64,000 nt of DNA, taken from Promethearchaeota archaeon (GTDB lineage: Archaea; Asgardarchaeota; Lokiarchaeia; Sigyniarchaeales; SOKP01). The notes under the pieces are model-generated. The model saw only the letters and a program-made list of their open reading frames with translations, searched no databases and was not told the origin of the DNA. Where the stretch lies: positions 32,001 through 96,000 of the forward strand of contig JAHLWS010000082.1 of assembly GCA_019057795.1 (NCBI GenBank). The letters are read 5' to 3'. The translations under genes and the position numbers were made by a program. The stretch's first letter is position 1, and each line of letters opens with the position of its first letter. Shown here in pieces: positions 1 through 6,566 of the stretch.

Positions 1-2478
1 TTTATCCCATATACCGAATTAATGAAGAAGTTAGGGATAGAACAAACAGGACAATTAAATTTTCATTTGAAAAAGCTTAATAATTTAGTGAGTAAAAACA
101 AAAAATCGTATTATTTAACTGATGATGGTAAAAGAGTTTTAAGGATATTAGGATTAAACAAAAGAATTTTATCCGGAGAGGAAATAGAATATTTGAAATC
201 AAAGGGGAGCGAAATAAACAGAATAGGTGTTATTATCTGTAATTGTAATACAGAAGTTTCAAATGTCCTTAACATTAACTCCTTAGAAAACTATGTAAGT
301 AAAATAAATAATGTAGTTTCAGTTAAAATCCTTGATAATTTATGTCAAGAAAAAAACCAAGATAAAATTAATAATTGGATTACTGATAACTTCATAAATA
401 AAATTGTCATCGCTGCTTGTTCTCCTAAAACACATCAACATATATTTGAACGTCTTTTTCAAAATATAATTGATAATGCAAATATTGAGATTGCAAATAT
501 AAGAGAACAATGTTGTTGGGTACATTATTCAAGTAAAAAGCACATTGATAGTCTTTTAACTCTGAAAAAAGCGCAATTACTTATAGAAGCCTCAGTTAAT
601 CGAGTAAGTCTTCAAAAACCAATTAAAATAAAAAGAGTTGAAGTTGAAAAAAGTTGCGCTATTGTTGGAGGTGGGATTGCGGGTATGAACACGGCGTTAA
701 ACTTATCAAGGGCAGGTATCAAGTGTTACCTAATTGAAAAGTCTCCTACATTAGGAGGTAAAGTAGCAAGATGGCAAAAGGTTTCTAAAATGGGAGATTG
801 CTCTGCTTGTTTCATCTCTGAATTAATTGGGGAAATTGTAAAAGAAAAAAAAATCGAGATCTTGACAAATACGGAAATAATAAGTGTATCGGGAGAAGTT
901 GGCAATTTTACTATAGGTTTAATTAAAAAACCTCGCTATATTGATGAGACTAAATGCACAGGTTGTAAACAATGTATTGATGTATGTGCTCGAGAGAAAG
1001 TTAATATGTATGAATTTGGATTAACAAATAGAAAAATAATTCACTTTCCTTTTCAATACTGTTATCCTTATGTCCCCGTTATTGAAGATGAAGATATTAA
1101 TAACTGCCTTGAGTGTGGAGTATGTGAACGCGCTTGTGCAAATAAAGCAATAAATTTAAGAGAAAAACCTAAGGAATTAAGAATTAAAGTAGGCGCAAAA
1201 GTTATAGCTATTGGTTCAGATCTTTATTCAAATTTAAAAGAATATAATTATAATCCACGAAATAATGTTATAACTTCAGCAGAATTTGAACGAATCTTAT
1301 CTTCAGATGGCCTAACTGATGGAAAGATCGTAAAATTGTCTGATGGGAAACCAGTAAAAACAATATCAATTATTCAAGAAGTAGGACCTTCAAATTATCT
1401 ATGTGAATATTCGGATATTTTAACCCTAAAGTATATAGATGTTATTAAAGTAAAGAATCTTGATTGTGAAGTTAATGTTTTTTACGATTTAAGTAAACTA
1501 AAAGAAAAAGACGAGATAATACTAAAATCTACTCATCCTAGATTTCTTTACGCTAATAATGTATTAATTGAGACAAGAGAGAATATTAATTATGTAGTTG
1601 CGGATTCTATTGAGTTTCAGAGTGATTTGATTGTTTTAAATCTTAAATTAATTCCAAATGAGGATCTGAAATCTCTAAGAAAGATTATGGACTTCACTTT
1701 AAATGATTATGGTTTTATGAGTGAAGAAACTTTAGCTTCTGGTATTTATGGTGTTGGAACAATATTTGGGCCATTAAATTATCACTCTACTATTGCAACC
1801 ACAAATAACATAGCGTTAAAAGTAATATCACTTCTTTCAAATGATTATTTAATAACAGAATATACTGGAATAGAGATTAATGAAGACAAGTGTGGATTGT
1901 GTAGCCTCTGCGTTAATTCTTGCCCTTACAATGCAATAAGCATAAACTCCGAAAAAATTGCTGTTGATAAGTTTAAATGTAAAGCTTGTGGTATGTGTGT
2001 CAGTGTTTGTCCTACTAATGCCATCGAAATGAATATAAATACATCAGAAAAGATTTTAAAAACGATCGAAATTTTCTCAAAATTCAATAAAAAACCAAAA
2101 ATCATCGCTTTTTGTTGCCAATCGTGCGGTTACGCTGCCGCTGACGATGCAGGATTAAAGAAATTGTTATATCAGCCTAATGTTTTTATAATCTCTGTTC
2201 CTTGTACCGGGCGTGTTGATACTGAATTCATTATTAAATCTTTTGAAATGGGGTTTGATGGAGTTATGATTATCGGCTGTAGAAAGGATTCTTGTAGATA
2301 TATTGATGGGATTGAAAAATTAAAAAAAAGAGTTGGGCTTTTAAAAAAAATTCTAGGACCAAAGTTAAGCAGACGGATAATAGTGATGGGTTTAAACGGA
2401 GTTGAAGGACATATATTTGCTGAAATCTCTACTAAATTCTATAATTTATTAAAGGAGGAGATTAAAAGTGAGGCTTAA
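1..2478 (+). CDS. Winged-helix (ArsR-like) domain fused to degenerate heterodisulfide reductase subunit A (HdrA) and C-terminal MvhD [2Fe-2S] domain; probably 5'-partial
   Basis: Frame is open from base 1 (FIPYTEL then MKKLGIEQTGQLNFHLKKL..LV.K...YYLTDDG, a wHTH pattern). HdrA motifs: IGVIICNC, ACSPKTH, NIREQCCWVH, GGGIAG, DCSAC, two ferredoxin CxxCxxCxxxC pairs. MvhD motifs: FCCQSCGY, PCTGRVD, GCRKDSCRY. Confidence 0.88.
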   Translation, partial: FIPYTELMKKLGIEQTGQLNFHLKKLNNLVSKNKKSYYLTDDGKRVLRILGLNKRILSGEEIEYLKSKGSEINRIGVIICNCNTEVSNVLNINSLENYVSKINNVVSVKILDNLCQEKNQDKINNWITDNFINKIVIAACSPKTHQHIFERLFQNIIDNANIEIANIREQCCWVHYSSKKHIDSLLTLKKAQLLIEASVNRVSLQKPIKIKRVEVEKSCAIVGGGIAGMNTALNLSRAGIKCYLIEKSPTLGGKVARWQKVSKMGDCSACFISELIGEIVKEKKIEILTNTEIISVSGEVGNFTIGLIKKPRYIDETKCTGCKQCIDVCAREKVNMYEFGLTNRKIIHFPFQYCYPYVPVIEDEDINNCLECGVCERACANKAINLREKPKELRIKVGAKVIAIGSDLYSNLKEYNYNPRNNVITSAEFERILSSDGLTDGKIVKLSDGKPVKTISIIQEVGPSNYLCEYSDILTLKYIDVIKVKNLDCEVNVFYDLSKLKEKDEIILKSTHPRFLYANNVLIETRENINYVVADSIEFQSDLIVLNLKLIPNEDLKSLRKIMDFTLNDYGFMSEETLASGIYGVGTIFGPLNYHSTIATTNNIALKVISLLSNDYLITEYTGIEINEDKCGLCSLCVNSCPYNAISINSEKIAVDKFKCKACGMCVSVCPTNAIEMNINTSEKILKTIEIFSKFNKKPKIIAFCCQSCGYAAADDAGLKKLLYQPNVFIISVPCTGRVDTEFIIKSFEMGFDGVMIIGCRKDSCRYIDGIEKLKKRVGLLKKILGPKLSRRIIVMGLNGVEGHIFAEISTKFYNLLKEEIKSEA

Positions 2479-3232
2479 ATTTTTAATTACATCTTTAACA
2501 TCTTGTACTGGATGTATATCCACATTAATATCGTTAGATGTATTTCCACAATTTCTTGAGAGAACGAAAATCGAATATTTTCCATTTATATCTGACAATT
2601 TAGAGATCAAAGAATGCGATGTAGCGCTAGTAGAGGGGTGCGTATCTGAAAAGAATCAAATCGAATATCTTCAAGAAATACGAAAAAATGCAAAAAAACT
2701 ATATGCATTAGGTACATGCTCAGCATTTGGGGGGATTCTTAGCCTCTCAAATAAAAAAGGATCGTATCCCATTTCCAAGTTTGTAGATGTTGATGGTATT
2801 ATACCGGGATGTCCTCCTCCGTCCATACTTTTAGGAAATTGTTTATTGAGGTTAGTTGAGAATAAAAAAATCAAGCTAAGCTTAAAAAATATGTGTTCTA
2901 CTTGTCCTTTAAACAACCAGGCAAAATTAGATTTACCATTAACAATAGAAAAGATTGTTCCAAGGAACAATGAAATTCGCTTTCCGGAAGAAAATTTATC
3001 GTGTTTTTTGAACGATGGGATTTTATGTTTAGGTCCTATTACTCGAGATGGCTGCGACCATCTCTGTATAAATCAAGGATTACCATGTGAAGGATGTTTA
3101 GGTCCGGTTTCAAAGGGGTTTACATCGAATTTAATCAATTTCTTAAGCCTTTTTAACCTTTCTAAAGATTTAAGAAAATATAAAGGGATATATTATAGGT
3201 TCTCAAAATCACCTATGGGAGGGAAGGTTTGA
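2468..3232 (+). CDS. mvhG: [NiFe]-hydrogenase group 3 small subunit (MvhG-like)
   Basis: CTGC, VEGCV, GTCSAFGG, PGCPP, CSTCP and CLGPITRDGC..LC...PCEGC Fe-S motifs; overlaps the upstream stop; GGAGGAG upstream. Confidence 0.88.
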   Translation: MRLKFLITSLTSCTGCISTLISLDVFPQFLERTKIEYFPFISDNLEIKECDVALVEGCVSEKNQIEYLQEIRKNAKKLYALGTCSAFGGILSLSNKKGSYPISKFVDVDGIIPGCPPPSILLGNCLLRLVENKKIKLSLKNMCSTCPLNNQAKLDLPLTIEKIVPRNNEIRFPEENLSCFLNDGILCLGPITRDGCDHLCINQGLPCEGCLGPVSKGFTSNLINFLSLFNLSKDLRKYKGIYYRFSKSPMGGKV

Positions 3233-4533
3233 TGGATAAAGTTGTAGAAGCATGCACAAGGGTTGAAGGTTGTGGAAACTTAAACATTTATTTAAAAAAT
3301 GATGAAATTTATCAAACTGAATTAAACTTTTCAGTATTTAGAGGATTTGAAAATATTTTAGTAGGCAAAAAGTTATTAGATCTTCCAAAAATAGCATCTA
3401 GAATTTGTGGACTGTGCTACGCATCTCAAACAATTGCAAGTTGCAAAGCAATAGAAGATATATACGGAATAGAACCATCACACCAATCAATTTTGCTCAG
3501 AAGGCTTTTATTATCCGGAGAATTAACAAAATCGCACATTATGCATTATTTTTTCCAATCCTTTCCAGATTTATTAAAAATATTTAAAATTAATACTACA
3601 ATTAACGATCCTTATAATTTAATTAATTACAATCCTCATTTAACGACAAATATTTTTAATTTAATAAAAATTGGTTCAGAAATAAATAAATTAATAGGAG
3701 GAAGGGTGCTACATCCAATTACTCCGATTCCTGGAGGATTAATATTCAATCCCACTCGAAAGAGTTTAATTTTTATGGAGAAATATCTAAAAAAGGGAAT
3801 TTACTACATAGAAACTATAATTGAAAATTTTATAGATTTATTTTCTGCTTATGATCCTCCTACAGAATTTAATCTTTCTAATCCTATATATTTCAGCTTG
3901 AAAAACAATACGGGGTTTGATAGATATGAAGGAGACCTCAGAATTGAACAAAATGAAACAACTTACGACGATTTTCAAGCAAAAAATTATTCAAAATATT
4001 TTGATAAAGACCCTAATCTTTATGGGATTATGTTTAAGTCAAATTCGAAAAATGAAATTTTAACAGGACCAATAGCGCGCTATAAGTTAACTCAAAGTTA
4101 TGGGATAGATAAAATATCCGAATATTTAAGCAATTTTGGAAAAAAATGGAAAAGCAATTTATTATTTTTAAACTTTTTACAATTAATCGAAAGTTATTAT
4201 GAAATTCAAAAATGTGTTGAAATATTCAATACTACTTCACTAAAAAGTAGAACAAAACTTAAACAACTGAACTCAATAAAAAAATCAAATGGAATAGGGG
4301 TTATCGAAGCACCAAGAGGCATACTAATGCATCATTATCATTTAAATAAAGCTAAAATCGTTGATCAAGTAAAACTTTTCATTGCAACCGAAATAAATTT
4401 GCCTATTCTTAACAAAATGATCACTGAATATGCTAAAAAGCTATATGAAAAAGAAGATATCGATTCTGTTAAAGAAAAAATTCAAATAATGATAAGAGCA
4501 TTTGATCCTTGCATATCGTGCGCTTCTCATTAA
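3232..4533 (+). CDS. mvhA: [NiFe]-hydrogenase group 3 large subunit (MvhA-like), no C-terminal extension
   Basis: TRVEG, RGFE, L1 RICGLC, GGRVLHP, GPIAR, EAPRG, L2 FDPCISCASH-stop; TGATG stop/start overlap at 3230-3234. Confidence 0.9.
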   Translation: MDKVVEACTRVEGCGNLNIYLKNDEIYQTELNFSVFRGFENILVGKKLLDLPKIASRICGLCYASQTIASCKAIEDIYGIEPSHQSILLRRLLLSGELTKSHIMHYFFQSFPDLLKIFKINTTINDPYNLINYNPHLTTNIFNLIKIGSEINKLIGGRVLHPITPIPGGLIFNPTRKSLIFMEKYLKKGIYYIETIIENFIDLFSAYDPPTEFNLSNPIYFSLKNNTGFDRYEGDLRIEQNETTYDDFQAKNYSKYFDKDPNLYGIMFKSNSKNEILTGPIARYKLTQSYGIDKISEYLSNFGKKWKSNLLFLNFLQLIESYYEIQKCVEIFNTTSLKSRTKLKQLNSIKKSNGIGVIEAPRGILMHHYHLNKAKIVDQVKLFIATEINLPILNKMITEYAKKLYEKEDIDSVKEKIQIMIRAFDPCISCASH

Positions 4534-4591: not shown

Positions 4592-5632
4592 TTGAAAGAA
4601 AATCTCTTAAATAACGCCAATAAAGAATGTCCATTTAGCGAATTGTGTGAGACTCTTTTGTTTTATTTTGATGAGACTATAGGCCATGTCCCACTTCTTA
4701 TTTGTCCAGAAAATGCGCTAGATGATGATTCGGGAAAAATGCGTCTTATAAGATACCATCCAATTTGGTTTTTAGAACTTAAAGATAAAACTACAATTAA
4801 CCGAATCGATTTAGAATACGGTAATCAAATGTATTTTGCGAAGAAATTTATTATTGAATCTAAGAGGGTTAAAAGAAGAGCAGGGTCTTTTCAAAAATCG
4901 GGTGAAATAGTTGTGTTGATACTTGTGTTACCTACAGATTTAGATATTTTTGGGGGAGAAGTATTAAATTTATTAACGAAAAAATTAGTCGACAAATTTG
5001 AAAATACGCTTTATCTTGTAATCGAGTCAGAAATTGCGAAACTGGAAGTTATTAAAACGGAGAAAATAATCAATAAGATAAAAAAAGGAGAACAAATAAA
5101 AGAAGAAATAAAAGCTATAGTTAACCTTACTTGTGAGGAATATTTTTCATCAGTAATTAAACAAACTGATGCGACCTCTTTCAAATTGCAAAAAGCAATT
5201 TCTTATTTAACATTTAAAGGAATCGATATTGACCACATTGTTATAAATGCTCAAAATGAATCGTTTTCTAAAATTCGATTATTTGATTATGATAGAGTTG
5301 TTCAACAAAAATTAGGAATAAAAGCTCAATTTAAAATAATGAATATAAATATTAGTAACAATTTTCAGGAAATAGAAGTTTTAGTAAAGAATAAGAGTAA
5401 AAAGGAATTCAATGATCTCATTGTCCGAATTACTTACATTAAAGAATTTTTTGAAAAAGAGGTATTAAACGAAAAAGTTGAAAAATGCCTTCCCGAAGAA
5501 GAATTATTGTTTATAACGCCTGTAATTAAAAATACAAACAATTATTTGTTTTCCATTATTGAAGAACATTCTAATAGAACAATGTTTTCTAATAAAATTG
5601 ATTTAGAATTAATTAAAAGTCGTCCCTACTAA
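4592..5632 (+). CDS. Hypothetical protein with putative N-terminal uDENN/longin-like domain
   Basis: 346-aa ORF; LLFYFDETIGHVPLLICPE resembles the first strands of uDENN domains (F-D/H-x3-G-x6-P). Confidence 0.5.
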   Translation: MKENLLNNANKECPFSELCETLLFYFDETIGHVPLLICPENALDDDSGKMRLIRYHPIWFLELKDKTTINRIDLEYGNQMYFAKKFIIESKRVKRRAGSFQKSGEIVVLILVLPTDLDIFGGEVLNLLTKKLVDKFENTLYLVIESEIAKLEVIKTEKIINKIKKGEQIKEEIKAIVNLTCEEYFSSVIKQTDATSFKLQKAISYLTFKGIDIDHIVINAQNESFSKIRLFDYDRVVQQKLGIKAQFKIMNINISNNFQEIEVLVKNKSKKEFNDLIVRITYIKEFFEKEVLNEKVEKCLPEEELLFITPVIKNTNNYLFSIIEEHSNRTMFSNKIDLELIKSRPY

Positions 5633-6566
5633 GGTATTTTTTCAAATTTTGGAAATCTTCGCCGTTTAAGTCGTTCATCACCGCATTAAAAATTCCCAGA
5701 GTTTTCTCTTTTGTAACAACCATCAGTACCGATCCATTGCTAACTTCCTTTACAAAAATATAGTTGTGTTCGCTCTCATATATAACCGTTGATAATTCTA
5801 AAGGAGAAATCGAAGTATTTGAAAGTTCCATGATCTTTGAAAAAATTTGATAAATATTAGAATCAAGGCTTCCGATTTCAAAACGGAGGAATTGAAGAGG
5901 TCTGTGCTCGAATTTACCTAAAGTTGAAGCTATCAATAAACCATCGGGTTGATTGAATAAGAAGTAATCAGAAAGCGTAGTTAACTTCAGCTGATCTAAC
6001 ATATACCGTATTTTTCCGAGTCTTTGTAAAGCTATTGTGTTTTGTTGAATTTTATAATCGAGTATTTCGATCATTCGATGTTGAGCACTTCCTTCTTTTA
6101 CGGATACGGGTGTAAAAGAAATATTACTTTTTAAATCATCTGTAAGATCTTTAATTAACAGTTCATAAATGTCATCTTCCTTTGATTCTTGAAGATCAGT
6201 TTTATTTAATAAGACATATACTTTTCCTACTTCAGGACTAAACTCAAAAAGGTATTTCAAGAATTTACCAAAAGTTTCTTTTAGTTTTGGTTCTTTTGCT
6301 GCCGAATCAACCATGAAAATTGCAGCTAATACTTCAGAAAATACAAGCTCTCGCTTTTTTTCCGAGAAATATCTTTCCATATAAAGTTCTTGGCCTCCTA
6401 AATCCCAGATGGAAAGTTCCATTATTCCCCTAAATATAAAATTTTCCCTTGAGACTCCTTTTGTAGGTTTCAGATTAAGCACTTTCATGAAATTATAACC
6501 TAAACAAGTAGTCCTCATTAATGACGTTTTACCCGCACCACCAGGGCCAAATAGAAGTACTTTTAT
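5613..6566 (-). CDS. Rag/Gtr1-like small GTPase with C-terminal roadblock-like domain
   Basis: The P-loop KVLLFGPGGAGKTS lies in frame upstream of the ORF-track start (6518), so the start must be upstream of it; most likely ATA at 6566. PT (G2), WDLGGQ (G3), NKTD (G4), SVK (G5). YMERYF..RELVFSEV closely matches RagA FMENYF..RDNIFRNV. Confidence 0.85.
   Translation of the reverse strand: MKVLLFGPGGAGKTSLMRTTCLGYNFMKVLNLKPTKGVSRENFIFRGIMELSIWDLGGQELYMERYFSEKKRELVFSEVLAAIFMVDSAAKEPKLKETFGKFLKYLFEFSPEVGKVYVLLNKTDLQESKEDDIYELLIKDLTDDLKSNISFTPVSVKEGSAQHRMIEILDYKIQQNTIALQRLGKIRYMLDQLKLTTLSDYFLFNQPDGLLIASTLGKFEHRPLQFLRFEIGSLDSNIYQIFSKIMELSNTSISPLELSTVIYESEHNYIFVKEVSNGSVLMVVTKEKTLGIFNAVMNDLNGEDFQNLKKYLSRDDF

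Follow-up and report, generated by a model that had tools for sequence, protein, structure and literature searches.

This report concerns the start of a 64,000-nucleotide stretch of DNA from a Promethearchaeota archaeon (the window; contig JAHLWS010000082.1, here C82, positions 32001-96000, with window base 1 at C82:32001), where three genes encode an HdrA–MvhD flavoprotein with an N-terminal winged helix, an MvhG-like small subunit and the large subunit of a group 3 [NiFe]-hydrogenase. We propose, with a probability of roughly 55%, that the locus encodes a self-regulating hydrogenase–transcription factor, that is, a one-component 'trigger enzyme' resembling PutA. Such a fusion would probably tie gene expression directly to H2 or to redox state without a kinase. 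Part of what is expected of a trigger enzyme is found here, namely an enzyme subunit with a predicted DNA-binding domain of its own and candidate operators at its own promoter. The candidate operator, a palindrome that stands in front of both the fusion operon and a linked one-carbon (C1) metabolism operon, is new to this work and was not part of an earlier note on this DNA, which had been made from the sequence alone. The window's own genome, of 4.95 Mb, is labelled G000, and other genomes, loci and families carry the prefixes G, L and f.

The winged helix and the fusion that carries it

The earlier note had read a winged helix-turn-helix (wHTH) at the N-terminus of the fusion and had pointed to the upstream sequence for its true start. 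Recovery of that sequence placed the full open reading frame (ORF) at C82:31932-34478, encoding a protein of 848 amino acids (aa; P0005). Since the ATG precedes window base 1 by 69 nucleotides (nt), residues 1-23 of the winged helix are outside the window. The complete N-terminus matches the Pfam family DUF7347 (PF24038) with 47.1 bits against a cut-off of 27.6, and gives weaker matches to HTH_20 (22 bits, below the cut-off), HTH_24 and HTH_45. An AlphaFold2 model built from 53 sequences has a mean pLDDT score of 89.8 and runs through two helices and the recognition helix into a beta-hairpin wing, ending in a long C-terminal helix. When this model was compared with the PDB by Foldseek, the best matches were all winged-helix repressors, with template modelling (TM) scores of 0.6-0.72: YodB, CadC, NolR bound to DNA, Rv0081, ArsR, SmtB, CzrA and BigR. 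We conclude that the N-terminus of P0005 is, as judged by profile and predicted fold, a winged helix of the ArsR/SmtB type, which bears out the earlier reading.

The features of the locus, in window coordinates, are as follows.

1-2478, + strand: wHTH–HdrA–MvhD fusion gene (residues 24-848 in the window; true start C82:31932)
1-171, + strand: ArsR/SmtB-type winged helix as predicted from Pfam DUF7347, AlphaFold2 and Foldseek (protein residues 1-80, of which 24-80 in the window)
217-546, + strand: HdrA N-terminal [4Fe-4S] domain, residues 96-205 (Cys motifs ICNCN, AACSP and EQCCWVH; alignment to 8rvu_a and 5odc_A)
661-777, + strand: Rossmann motif VGGGIAG...EK...GG binding flavin adenine dinucleotide (FAD) (Pfam NAD_binding_8 and FAD_oxidored; HdrA alignment)
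937-1143, + strand: inserted ferredoxin domain, its two CxxCxxCxxxC motifs complete (counterparts of clusters HA5 and HA6)
1369-1431, + strand: degenerate HA4 block, residues 480-500 (HdrA alignment)
1864-2040, + strand: C-terminal 2x[4Fe-4S] ferredoxin domain, residues 645-703 (Pfam, HdrA alignment)
2092-2454, + strand: MvhD/FlpD [2Fe-2S] domain, residues 721-841 (Pfam FlpD 112 bits; Cys pattern kept; PDB MvhD chains at E ~1e-21)
2468-3232, + strand: MvhG-like [NiFe] small subunit (Oxidored_q6), 254 aa, with Cys sufficient for the proximal cluster and two more [4Fe-4S] clusters
3229-4533, + strand: group 3 [NiFe]-hydrogenase large subunit, 434 aa (Pfam NiFeSe_Hases)
3400-3429, + strand: L1 motif RICGLCYASQ, with Gln67 in the His position (orthologue comparison, HoxC alignment)
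4504-4533, + strand: L2 motif DPCISCASH, with the stop codon directly after it (orthologue comparison)

It can be seen that the three genes, all on the + strand, overlap successively by 11 and 4 nt. The arrangement given in the earlier note, a wHTH joined to HdrA and MvhD and followed by MvhG and MvhA, was confirmed by the ORFs and the domain matches. Residues 92-713 of P0005 cover the whole of the solved HdrA structures (8rvu, 5odc and 7bkb; E 1e-88 to 5e-105), pairing with HdrA residues 8-650 at E 5e-105.

When residues 1-95 were searched against 1.8 billion representative proteins, 1009 relatives were found at E <= 0.001, which are mostly 100-470 aa long and carry the domain at the N-terminus. 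Those that were scanned match DUF7347, HTH_20 and HTH_5 (ArsR), the last two above their cut-offs. Residues R12, H45, Y60 and G66 are invariant in the fusions and in their stand-alone relatives; the recognition helix reads TGQLNFHLKKL in P0005, and the linker that follows the winged helix, NKRILSGEEIEYL, is conserved.

These residues bear on an alternative that we regard as unlikely, in which the locus encodes an ordinary catalytic hydrogenase–HdrA complex, the winged helix has a structural or docking role and binds no DNA, and the palindrome is that of an unlinked regulator. A conserved linker would be expected of a docked element, and the winged helix of BamF serves as a subunit interface (bioRxiv 10.64898/2026.04.10.717634). 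Set against this, the residues invariant in the ArsR-type relatives are kept in the fusions, across which TGQLNFHLKK is near-invariant, and the winged helix is the sole DNA-binding domain recognised in the conserved gene set.

The earlier note had called for a survey of Asgard genomes, and had held that a fusion unique to this assembly would count against it. Both the fusion and its synteny proved to be widespread: the gene order wHTH-HdrA-MvhD, MvhG, MvhA is kept in 16 of 16 loci from seven Asgard families, and among 301 Asgard genomes the matches that start at query residue 1, and so include the winged helix, come from seven families at identities from 95% down to 37%. Other Asgard HdrA–MvhD paralogues begin at about residue 90-97, without the winged helix. 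The 120 closest protein clusters (64-95% identity) all start with or inside the winged helix, the shorter entries being later start-codon calls. An assembly, frameshift or gene-calling artefact that joined a separate regulator gene to hdrA was prompted solely by the gene being cut by the window edge and found no support; it is refuted by an ORF that is continuous in the contig and in at least 30 other genomes, and by the presence of the fusion in more than 120 protein clusters (NCBI, JGI, ENA and Logan), and we give it practically no weight. No fusion was found outside Asgard archaea. One Acidobacteriota match that seemingly started at residue 29 (L088) turned out to be an HdrCBA-MvhD-MetVF cluster without a winged helix. 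A locus deposited as 'Candidatus Nanopelagicaceae bacterium' (L077, DATKTW010000111.1) has a fusion gene 94% identical to that of the window, and its contig is probably from a mislabelled or contaminated bin. The fusion is missing from the complete 4.4-Mb genome G213, of the same order, which encodes one [NiFe] large subunit. We conclude from these comparisons of sequence that the fusion is Asgard-specific, widespread and, to judge from its spread, old.

The palindrome and the linked C1-metabolism operon

A divergent gene is separated from the fusion gene by 310 nt. When this region was footprinted across loci whose proteins are 68-87% identical, several conserved blocks were seen: TTTGACAAGAA, a palindrome of the form TTTGATAA-N6-TTRTCAAA, the sequence ATGATCA, a TATA box (TTTATATA, C82:31825-31832), and half-sites TTATCATGAAGA-N9-TTTGTCAA that are conserved over the likely transcription start. 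For the palindrome we distinguish a core (GAYAA-N6-TTRTC), a 6-6-6 form (TGAYAA-N6-TTRTCA) and an exact 7-6-7 form, and a control pattern was used for comparison. The exact form occurs once in the 4.95-Mb genome, at C82:31716-31735, upstream of the ATG of the fusion gene by 216 nt and of the divergent gene by 95 nt. The 6-6-6 form is present in one to five copies per genome in five other Asgard genomes, at about the frequency of the control; G047 has a single copy, 97 nt upstream of the fusion gene, one copy is likewise upstream of that gene in each of G028 and G240, and G170 has one between mvhA and the next gene.

The core palindrome was found 21 times, against once for the control pattern, in 161 kb from 12 loci of six families. 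Twenty of the 21 sites are intergenic, five of the six families contribute to them, and 18 lie 41-253 nt upstream of either the fusion gene or a gene for a 209- or 243-aa protein (see below), with the same placement whether the operons are divergent (f1 and f21) or tandem (f14 and f9). Within the window's own family, a site is present at most 400 nt upstream in 21 of 29 related loci, where 0.003 would be expected from the genome-wide frequency in G000. Co-loss was also seen, in that three of the five family genomes without the fusion are also without the 209-aa gene, and the remaining two carry diverged copies of that gene without the core palindrome; we regard this as suggestive.

A wider genomic regulon was considered and rejected, as sites with one mismatch numbered 23 against 20 for the control, giving no enrichment beyond two sites on C82, and the palindrome turned up neither at the other hydrogenase locus nor anywhere else in G000. 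A second, imperfect copy of the distal promoter block, TTTGATAAG ... TTGATAA-N6-TTTTCAA, is located at C82:26765-26810, 4.9 kb from the first and upstream of an 86-aa minus-strand ORF without a family match. The candidate regulon thus appears to be local, taking in the fusion's own operon and the C1-metabolism operon and not other hydrogenase genes.

That second operon is the divergent one, just upstream of the window (C82:29169-31621). It encodes two paralogous proteins of 209 and 243 aa, followed by an MtdA-like protein of 337 aa, whose homology to the NADP-dependent methylene-tetrahydromethanopterin (H4MPT) dehydrogenase MtdA is full-length (1lu9, 6tge; E ~1e-28). The 209- and 243-aa proteins are confined to Asgard archaea, with no match in Pfam or NCBIfam and no convincing fold match. 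In a search for the function of the 243-aa protein the ESM Atlas returned unnamed Asgard clusters only and Foldseek nothing, and VIA-align gave only matches within noise (Z 8-9), to ChaN and to CbiL-type methylases over their N-terminal halves. The 209/243-aa and MtdA-like genes accompany the hydrogenase cluster in f1, f21, f14 and f9. In one genus the unit of all three is tandemly duplicated beside the hydrogenase cluster (L069, G147:C8:252200-266900), and the shared intergenic region there holds three core palindromes. Genes for F420-dependent Mtd (PF01993, 357 bits) and Ftr are present at C82:24414-26342, less than 5 kb from the MtdA-like gene, so that two non-homologous enzymes for one H4MPT step are encoded side by side.

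An ordinary catalytic complex with a docking winged helix would couple H2 with ferredoxin, and perhaps with NADP(H), for the linked MtdA-like H4MPT step. The tight linkage of the MtdA-like and 243-aa genes to the cluster in four families, with one transcriptional direction in f14 and f9, fits this account, as do the F420-dependent Mtd and Ftr genes a few kb upstream and the existence of bacterial HdrA–MvhD modules joined to C1 enzymes, for example the HdrCBA-MvhD-MetVF cluster on an Acidobacteriota contig. It is countered by the near-unique palindrome, which adjoins the gene in five families and is the usual signature of a locally encoded regulator.

The hydrogenase, its HdrA partner and the probable order of events

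The earlier note had called the large subunit sensor-like and of group 3. Two traits shared with regulatory hydrogenases agree with the first point and its best matches with the second. In the L1 motif, RICGLCYASQ, Gln67 stands where other [NiFe]-hydrogenases have His, and because the stop codon directly follows DPCISCASH at L2, the subunit is without the C-terminal extension that a maturation protease would cut off. By comparison, MvhA (5odc_F) is 473 aa long and its motif ends at residue 448. Both traits are found in about 119 of 120 orthologues, and both occur at the same aligned positions in HoxC of the Cupriavidus necator pHG1 regulatory hydrogenase, which reads RVCGICSVSQ and ends DPCMVCTVH. 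The Gln is described as characteristic of regulatory hydrogenases and as probably not involved in H2 sensing (PMC5665086), and groups 2b, 2d, 4c and 4e are naturally without the C-terminal extension (PMC7294309).

The large subunit does not fall in group 2, its best matches being all of group 3, and the closest solved relatives are 7t2r_D (E 4e-51), MvhA 5odc_F (E 5e-44) and 5xf9_D. It is below all NCBIfam cut-offs, with 155 bits for VhuA (cut-off 800) and a higher score, 181 bits, for ShyA (group 3b); all subunits of the locus are far below theirs. We conclude from these scores that it is to be placed in group 3 and in no curated subfamily. The catalytic site is intact, with both cysteine pairs (RICGLC and DPCISC), the Arg of EAPRG and the Glu of RVEG, which argues for a working NiFe centre. 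The sequence RVEGC, with Cys for the His of RxEGH, was considered as a family trait and rejected, since His is present in 104 of 120 orthologues.

The HdrA part shows full-length homology to HdrA; the TrxR-like FAD domain is there, as are the GxGxxG motif and the lysine that touches flavin N5. The best NCBIfam model is HdrA2, at 555 bits against a cut-off of 1100, and the equivalog score is not reached. The earlier note had called the HdrA–MvhD part degenerate. All four Cys of the C..CSxxCC block, which we take to be the ligands of cluster HA4 in 5ODC, are substituted, their positions reading E483, L490, S494 and D495. The block could be located in 103 close orthologues, and not one of them keeps the C..CxxCC arrangement. 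All remaining cluster motifs, GGGIAG and the MvhD cysteines are retained in P0005, as is K500, the equivalent of the lysine in contact with flavin N5 (Lys409 in 5ODC; PMC6405883). In the known complex HA4 passes the high-potential electron from FAD toward the heterodisulfide site of HdrBC (PMC12350162), and the same role is given to the equivalent cluster E4 of class II benzoyl-CoA reductase (BCRII; bioRxiv 10.64898/2026.04.10.717634). Since HA4 is lost, the wire to HdrBC would be lost in the window's lineage.

The earlier note had also stated that neither hdrB nor hdrC is present. The hdrB half of that statement holds, as a genome-wide scan gave 46 CCG-domain (HdrB/HdrD-type) matches with none of them on contig C82, so that the window holds no HdrB; no separate search was made for HdrC. 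A tblastn gene map of 16 orthologous loci covered HdrA–MvhD, MvhG, MvhA and the 209-aa, 243-aa and MtdA genes, HdrB and HdrC not being among the queries. The G000 genome as a whole has 12 FlpD domains and about 23 CCG-domain genes. Four MvhD/FlpD matches have two in-frame TGA codons each (C42:32233-32601, C22:32095-32457, C87:35784-36152 and C5:42589-42954), which suggests that they are selenocysteine-containing MvhD paralogues.

When the fusions are compared across families, those of f18, f14 and f9 retain the cysteines of HA4 as well as the L1 His, and end in a C-terminal tail of 7-10 residues, the f18 tail coming after an L2 motif without the final His. In f21 HA4 is lost and the L1 His and tail are kept; in f3 HA4 is lost, Gln is present and the tail is kept; and in the window's family HA4 is lost, Gln is present and there is no tail. 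On identity levels alone, the order of events appears to have been fusion, then loss of HA4, then acquisition of regulatory-hydrogenase traits. Because the deeper fusions (f18, f14 and f9) keep HA4, His and tail, the winged helix would first have been joined to an ordinary-looking enzyme. A natural series of this kind can show the drift of an enzyme toward signalling. For the window's lineage, the loss of HA4 together with the two regulatory traits points to either signalling or a simple, non-bifurcating reaction between ferredoxin and H2.

Apart from the window's enzyme, G000 encodes one other [NiFe] large subunit, on contig C60 (C60:2367-6685, L026). This locus comprises a small subunit resembling VhuG (438 aa), a VhuA-like large subunit ending short of L2 (461 bits for VhuA), a separate small VhuU-like ORF in which an in-frame TGA gives the reading DCU-LSCAAH plus a tail (selenocysteine), hdrC and hdrB; no hdrA or mvhD lies beside it. 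In three metagenome-assembled genomes (MAGs), G049 (99% complete), G077 (92%) and G309 (96%), the window-type hydrogenase is the only one found, with no Vhu-type, group 4 (PF00346) or [FeFe] (PF02906) enzyme detected, absence not being proven in MAGs. A single hydrogenase has been published for MK-D1 (PMC7015854).

These observations bear on how far the locus can be taken as a sensor. We think it improbable that it is a dedicated, kinase-free H2 sensor without a metabolic role, in which a slow, regulatory-type NiFe site would reduce the MvhG-MvhD-HdrA chain and do nothing other than switch the DNA-binding domain. The Gln and the missing extension, as in HoxC (PMC5665086, PMC7294309), would be in keeping with this, as would the lost HA4 ligands and an operon without hdrBC; the large subunit is also the faster evolving (51-58% identity, against 65-74% for the HdrA fusion), and the selenocysteine-containing Vhu-type hydrogenase beside hdrCB in G000 could carry out catalysis. 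However, the active site has kept its residues, a role of the Gln in sensing is reported to be unlikely (PMC5665086), the extension is also missing in the catalytic groups 4c and 4e (PMC7294309), and no copy of the palindrome was found at the other hydrogenase locus or in the rest of the genome. Moreover, the older fusions resemble ordinary enzymes, and the three MAGs in which the window-type hydrogenase is the only one found argue for real turnover. The sensor reading of the earlier note therefore stands in part: the wHTH, the fusion, the HA4 loss and the two regulatory traits are in its favour, and a purely non-catalytic sensor is disfavoured by the sole-hydrogenase MAGs and the enzyme-like older fusions.

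Proposed mechanism and comparison with known systems

In the self-regulating enzyme that we favour, the locus would be an Asgard-specific soluble redox module made up of a [NiFe] large subunit, MvhG, MvhD and an HdrA-type flavoprotein bearing a winged helix. An HdrA dimer, as seen in the solved complexes, could offer two winged helices to the two half-sites of TGAYAA-N6-TTRTCA. Such sites are present in two promoters, that of its own operon and that of the operon for the 209/243-aa and MtdA-like proteins, and the fusion protein would control both operons. Its affinity for DNA would shift with the redox state of the FAD and the Fe-S chain, which in turn would be set by H2 at the NiFe site and probably also by ferredoxin at the inserted ferredoxin domain. 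What we infer is that the P0005 domain binds DNA, that the protein dimerises and that redox state governs the binding, together with the direction in which the electrons flow. A stricter form, in which H2 splitting at a regulatory-type NiFe site reduces the HdrA flavin and thereby releases or engages the winged helix at a dedicated operator, would make the protein a true one-component H2 sensor; we hold this possible but doubtful. If it were correct, these Asgard archaea would set their H4MPT-pathway and hydrogenase genes by the ambient H2 partial pressure with neither a kinase nor a second messenger, a way of sensing H2 that is not known to have been described before.

Several points weigh against the self-regulating enzyme. 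The evidence for DNA binding and redox switching is indirect, and the BamF interface gives a structural role for the winged helix a precedent (bioRxiv 10.64898/2026.04.10.717634). Another, unlinked regulator could bind the palindrome. The 29 loci of the window's own family are related to one another and are not independent; no core palindrome was found in the f18 loci, though f18 has the fusion; and the window's own locus has a degenerate form of the promoter-proximal site. Finally, should the enzyme still turn over, it is not clear where the second electron would go once HA4 is lost.

Exchange of H2 with partners is central to Asgard physiology and to syntrophy models for the origin of eukaryotes, and the locus supplies a concrete candidate pair of regulator and operator, consisting of a 95-residue domain and a 20-bp palindrome. 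Genome reconstructions of Asgard archaea treat these genes as ordinary MvhADG-HdrABC bifurcating enzymes (PMC7015854, PMC11291895), and annotations of this kind merge at least two different systems. In the searchable literature, whose coverage is limited, no description of an HdrA with a DNA-binding domain was found, two surveys of HdrA diversity included.

The remaining genes of the surroundings stand apart from this. At window 4592-6518, a 346-aa protein without a family match follows mvhA solely in close relatives (44-47% identity); its gene overlaps that of a RagA/Gtr1-like GTPase tail-to-tail and lies outside the conserved hydrogenase cluster. Neighbouring genes include those for RagA/Gtr1-like and Arf-like GTPases, the nearest database relatives are labelled Lokiarchaeota / Promethearchaeota, and the G+C content of the sequence is about 30%.

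Among known systems, the MvhAGD-HdrABC complex of methanogens (PDB 5ODC, 8RVU and 7BKB) shares with the window's locus its subunits and the order of their cofactors: the NiFe large subunit, the small subunit with three clusters, MvhD with its [2Fe-2S] domain, and an HdrA with FAD, including its N-terminal cluster, inserted and C-terminal ferredoxin domains and N5 lysine. In contrast, the N-terminal winged helix, the fusion of MvhD to HdrA, the lost HA4 ligands, the lack of hdrB on the contig, the Gln for His in the large subunit and the missing C-terminal extension set the window's locus apart from that complex. The regulatory hydrogenases HoxBC/HupUV with HoxJ-HoxA (group 2b, Cupriavidus necator pHG1) resemble it in the Gln at L1 Cys+4, in ending at the L2 His and in the transcriptional output proposed here. 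They differ in that the window's enzyme is not a relative of group 2 and that neither a histidine kinase nor a response regulator was found encoded in the conserved cluster; instead the predicted DNA-binding domain is on the electron-transfer partner, and the candidate targets are its own operon and a C1 operon, not other hydrogenase genes. BamF of class II benzoyl-CoA reductase is, likewise, an MvhD-type adaptor in an HdrA-type module and contains a winged helix-turn-helix (bioRxiv 10.64898/2026.04.10.717634). There the motif is internal and contacts BamI, whereas in the fusion it is N-terminal, belongs to the ArsR/DUF7347 regulator family and is accompanied by a conserved palindrome.

Repressors of the ArsR/SmtB, HxlR and YodB types resemble the winged helix in fold (TM 0.6-0.72), in profile matches and in the palindromic candidate operator. 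These repressors sense metals, thiols or quinones inside their own small dimer, whereas sensing would here fall to a hydrogenase-linked flavin/Fe-S protein of 770 residues. PutA is a flavoenzyme of proline utilisation that is also a repressor, with an N-terminal DNA-binding domain for which the redox state of the flavin is the signal, and its operators lie in the intergenic region between divergent genes, one of them its own. The comparison is one between unrelated enzymes: PutA has a ribbon-helix-helix and the fusion a winged helix, and the signal would reach the fusion through a hydrogenase and an Fe-S chain, with no membrane-association step implied.

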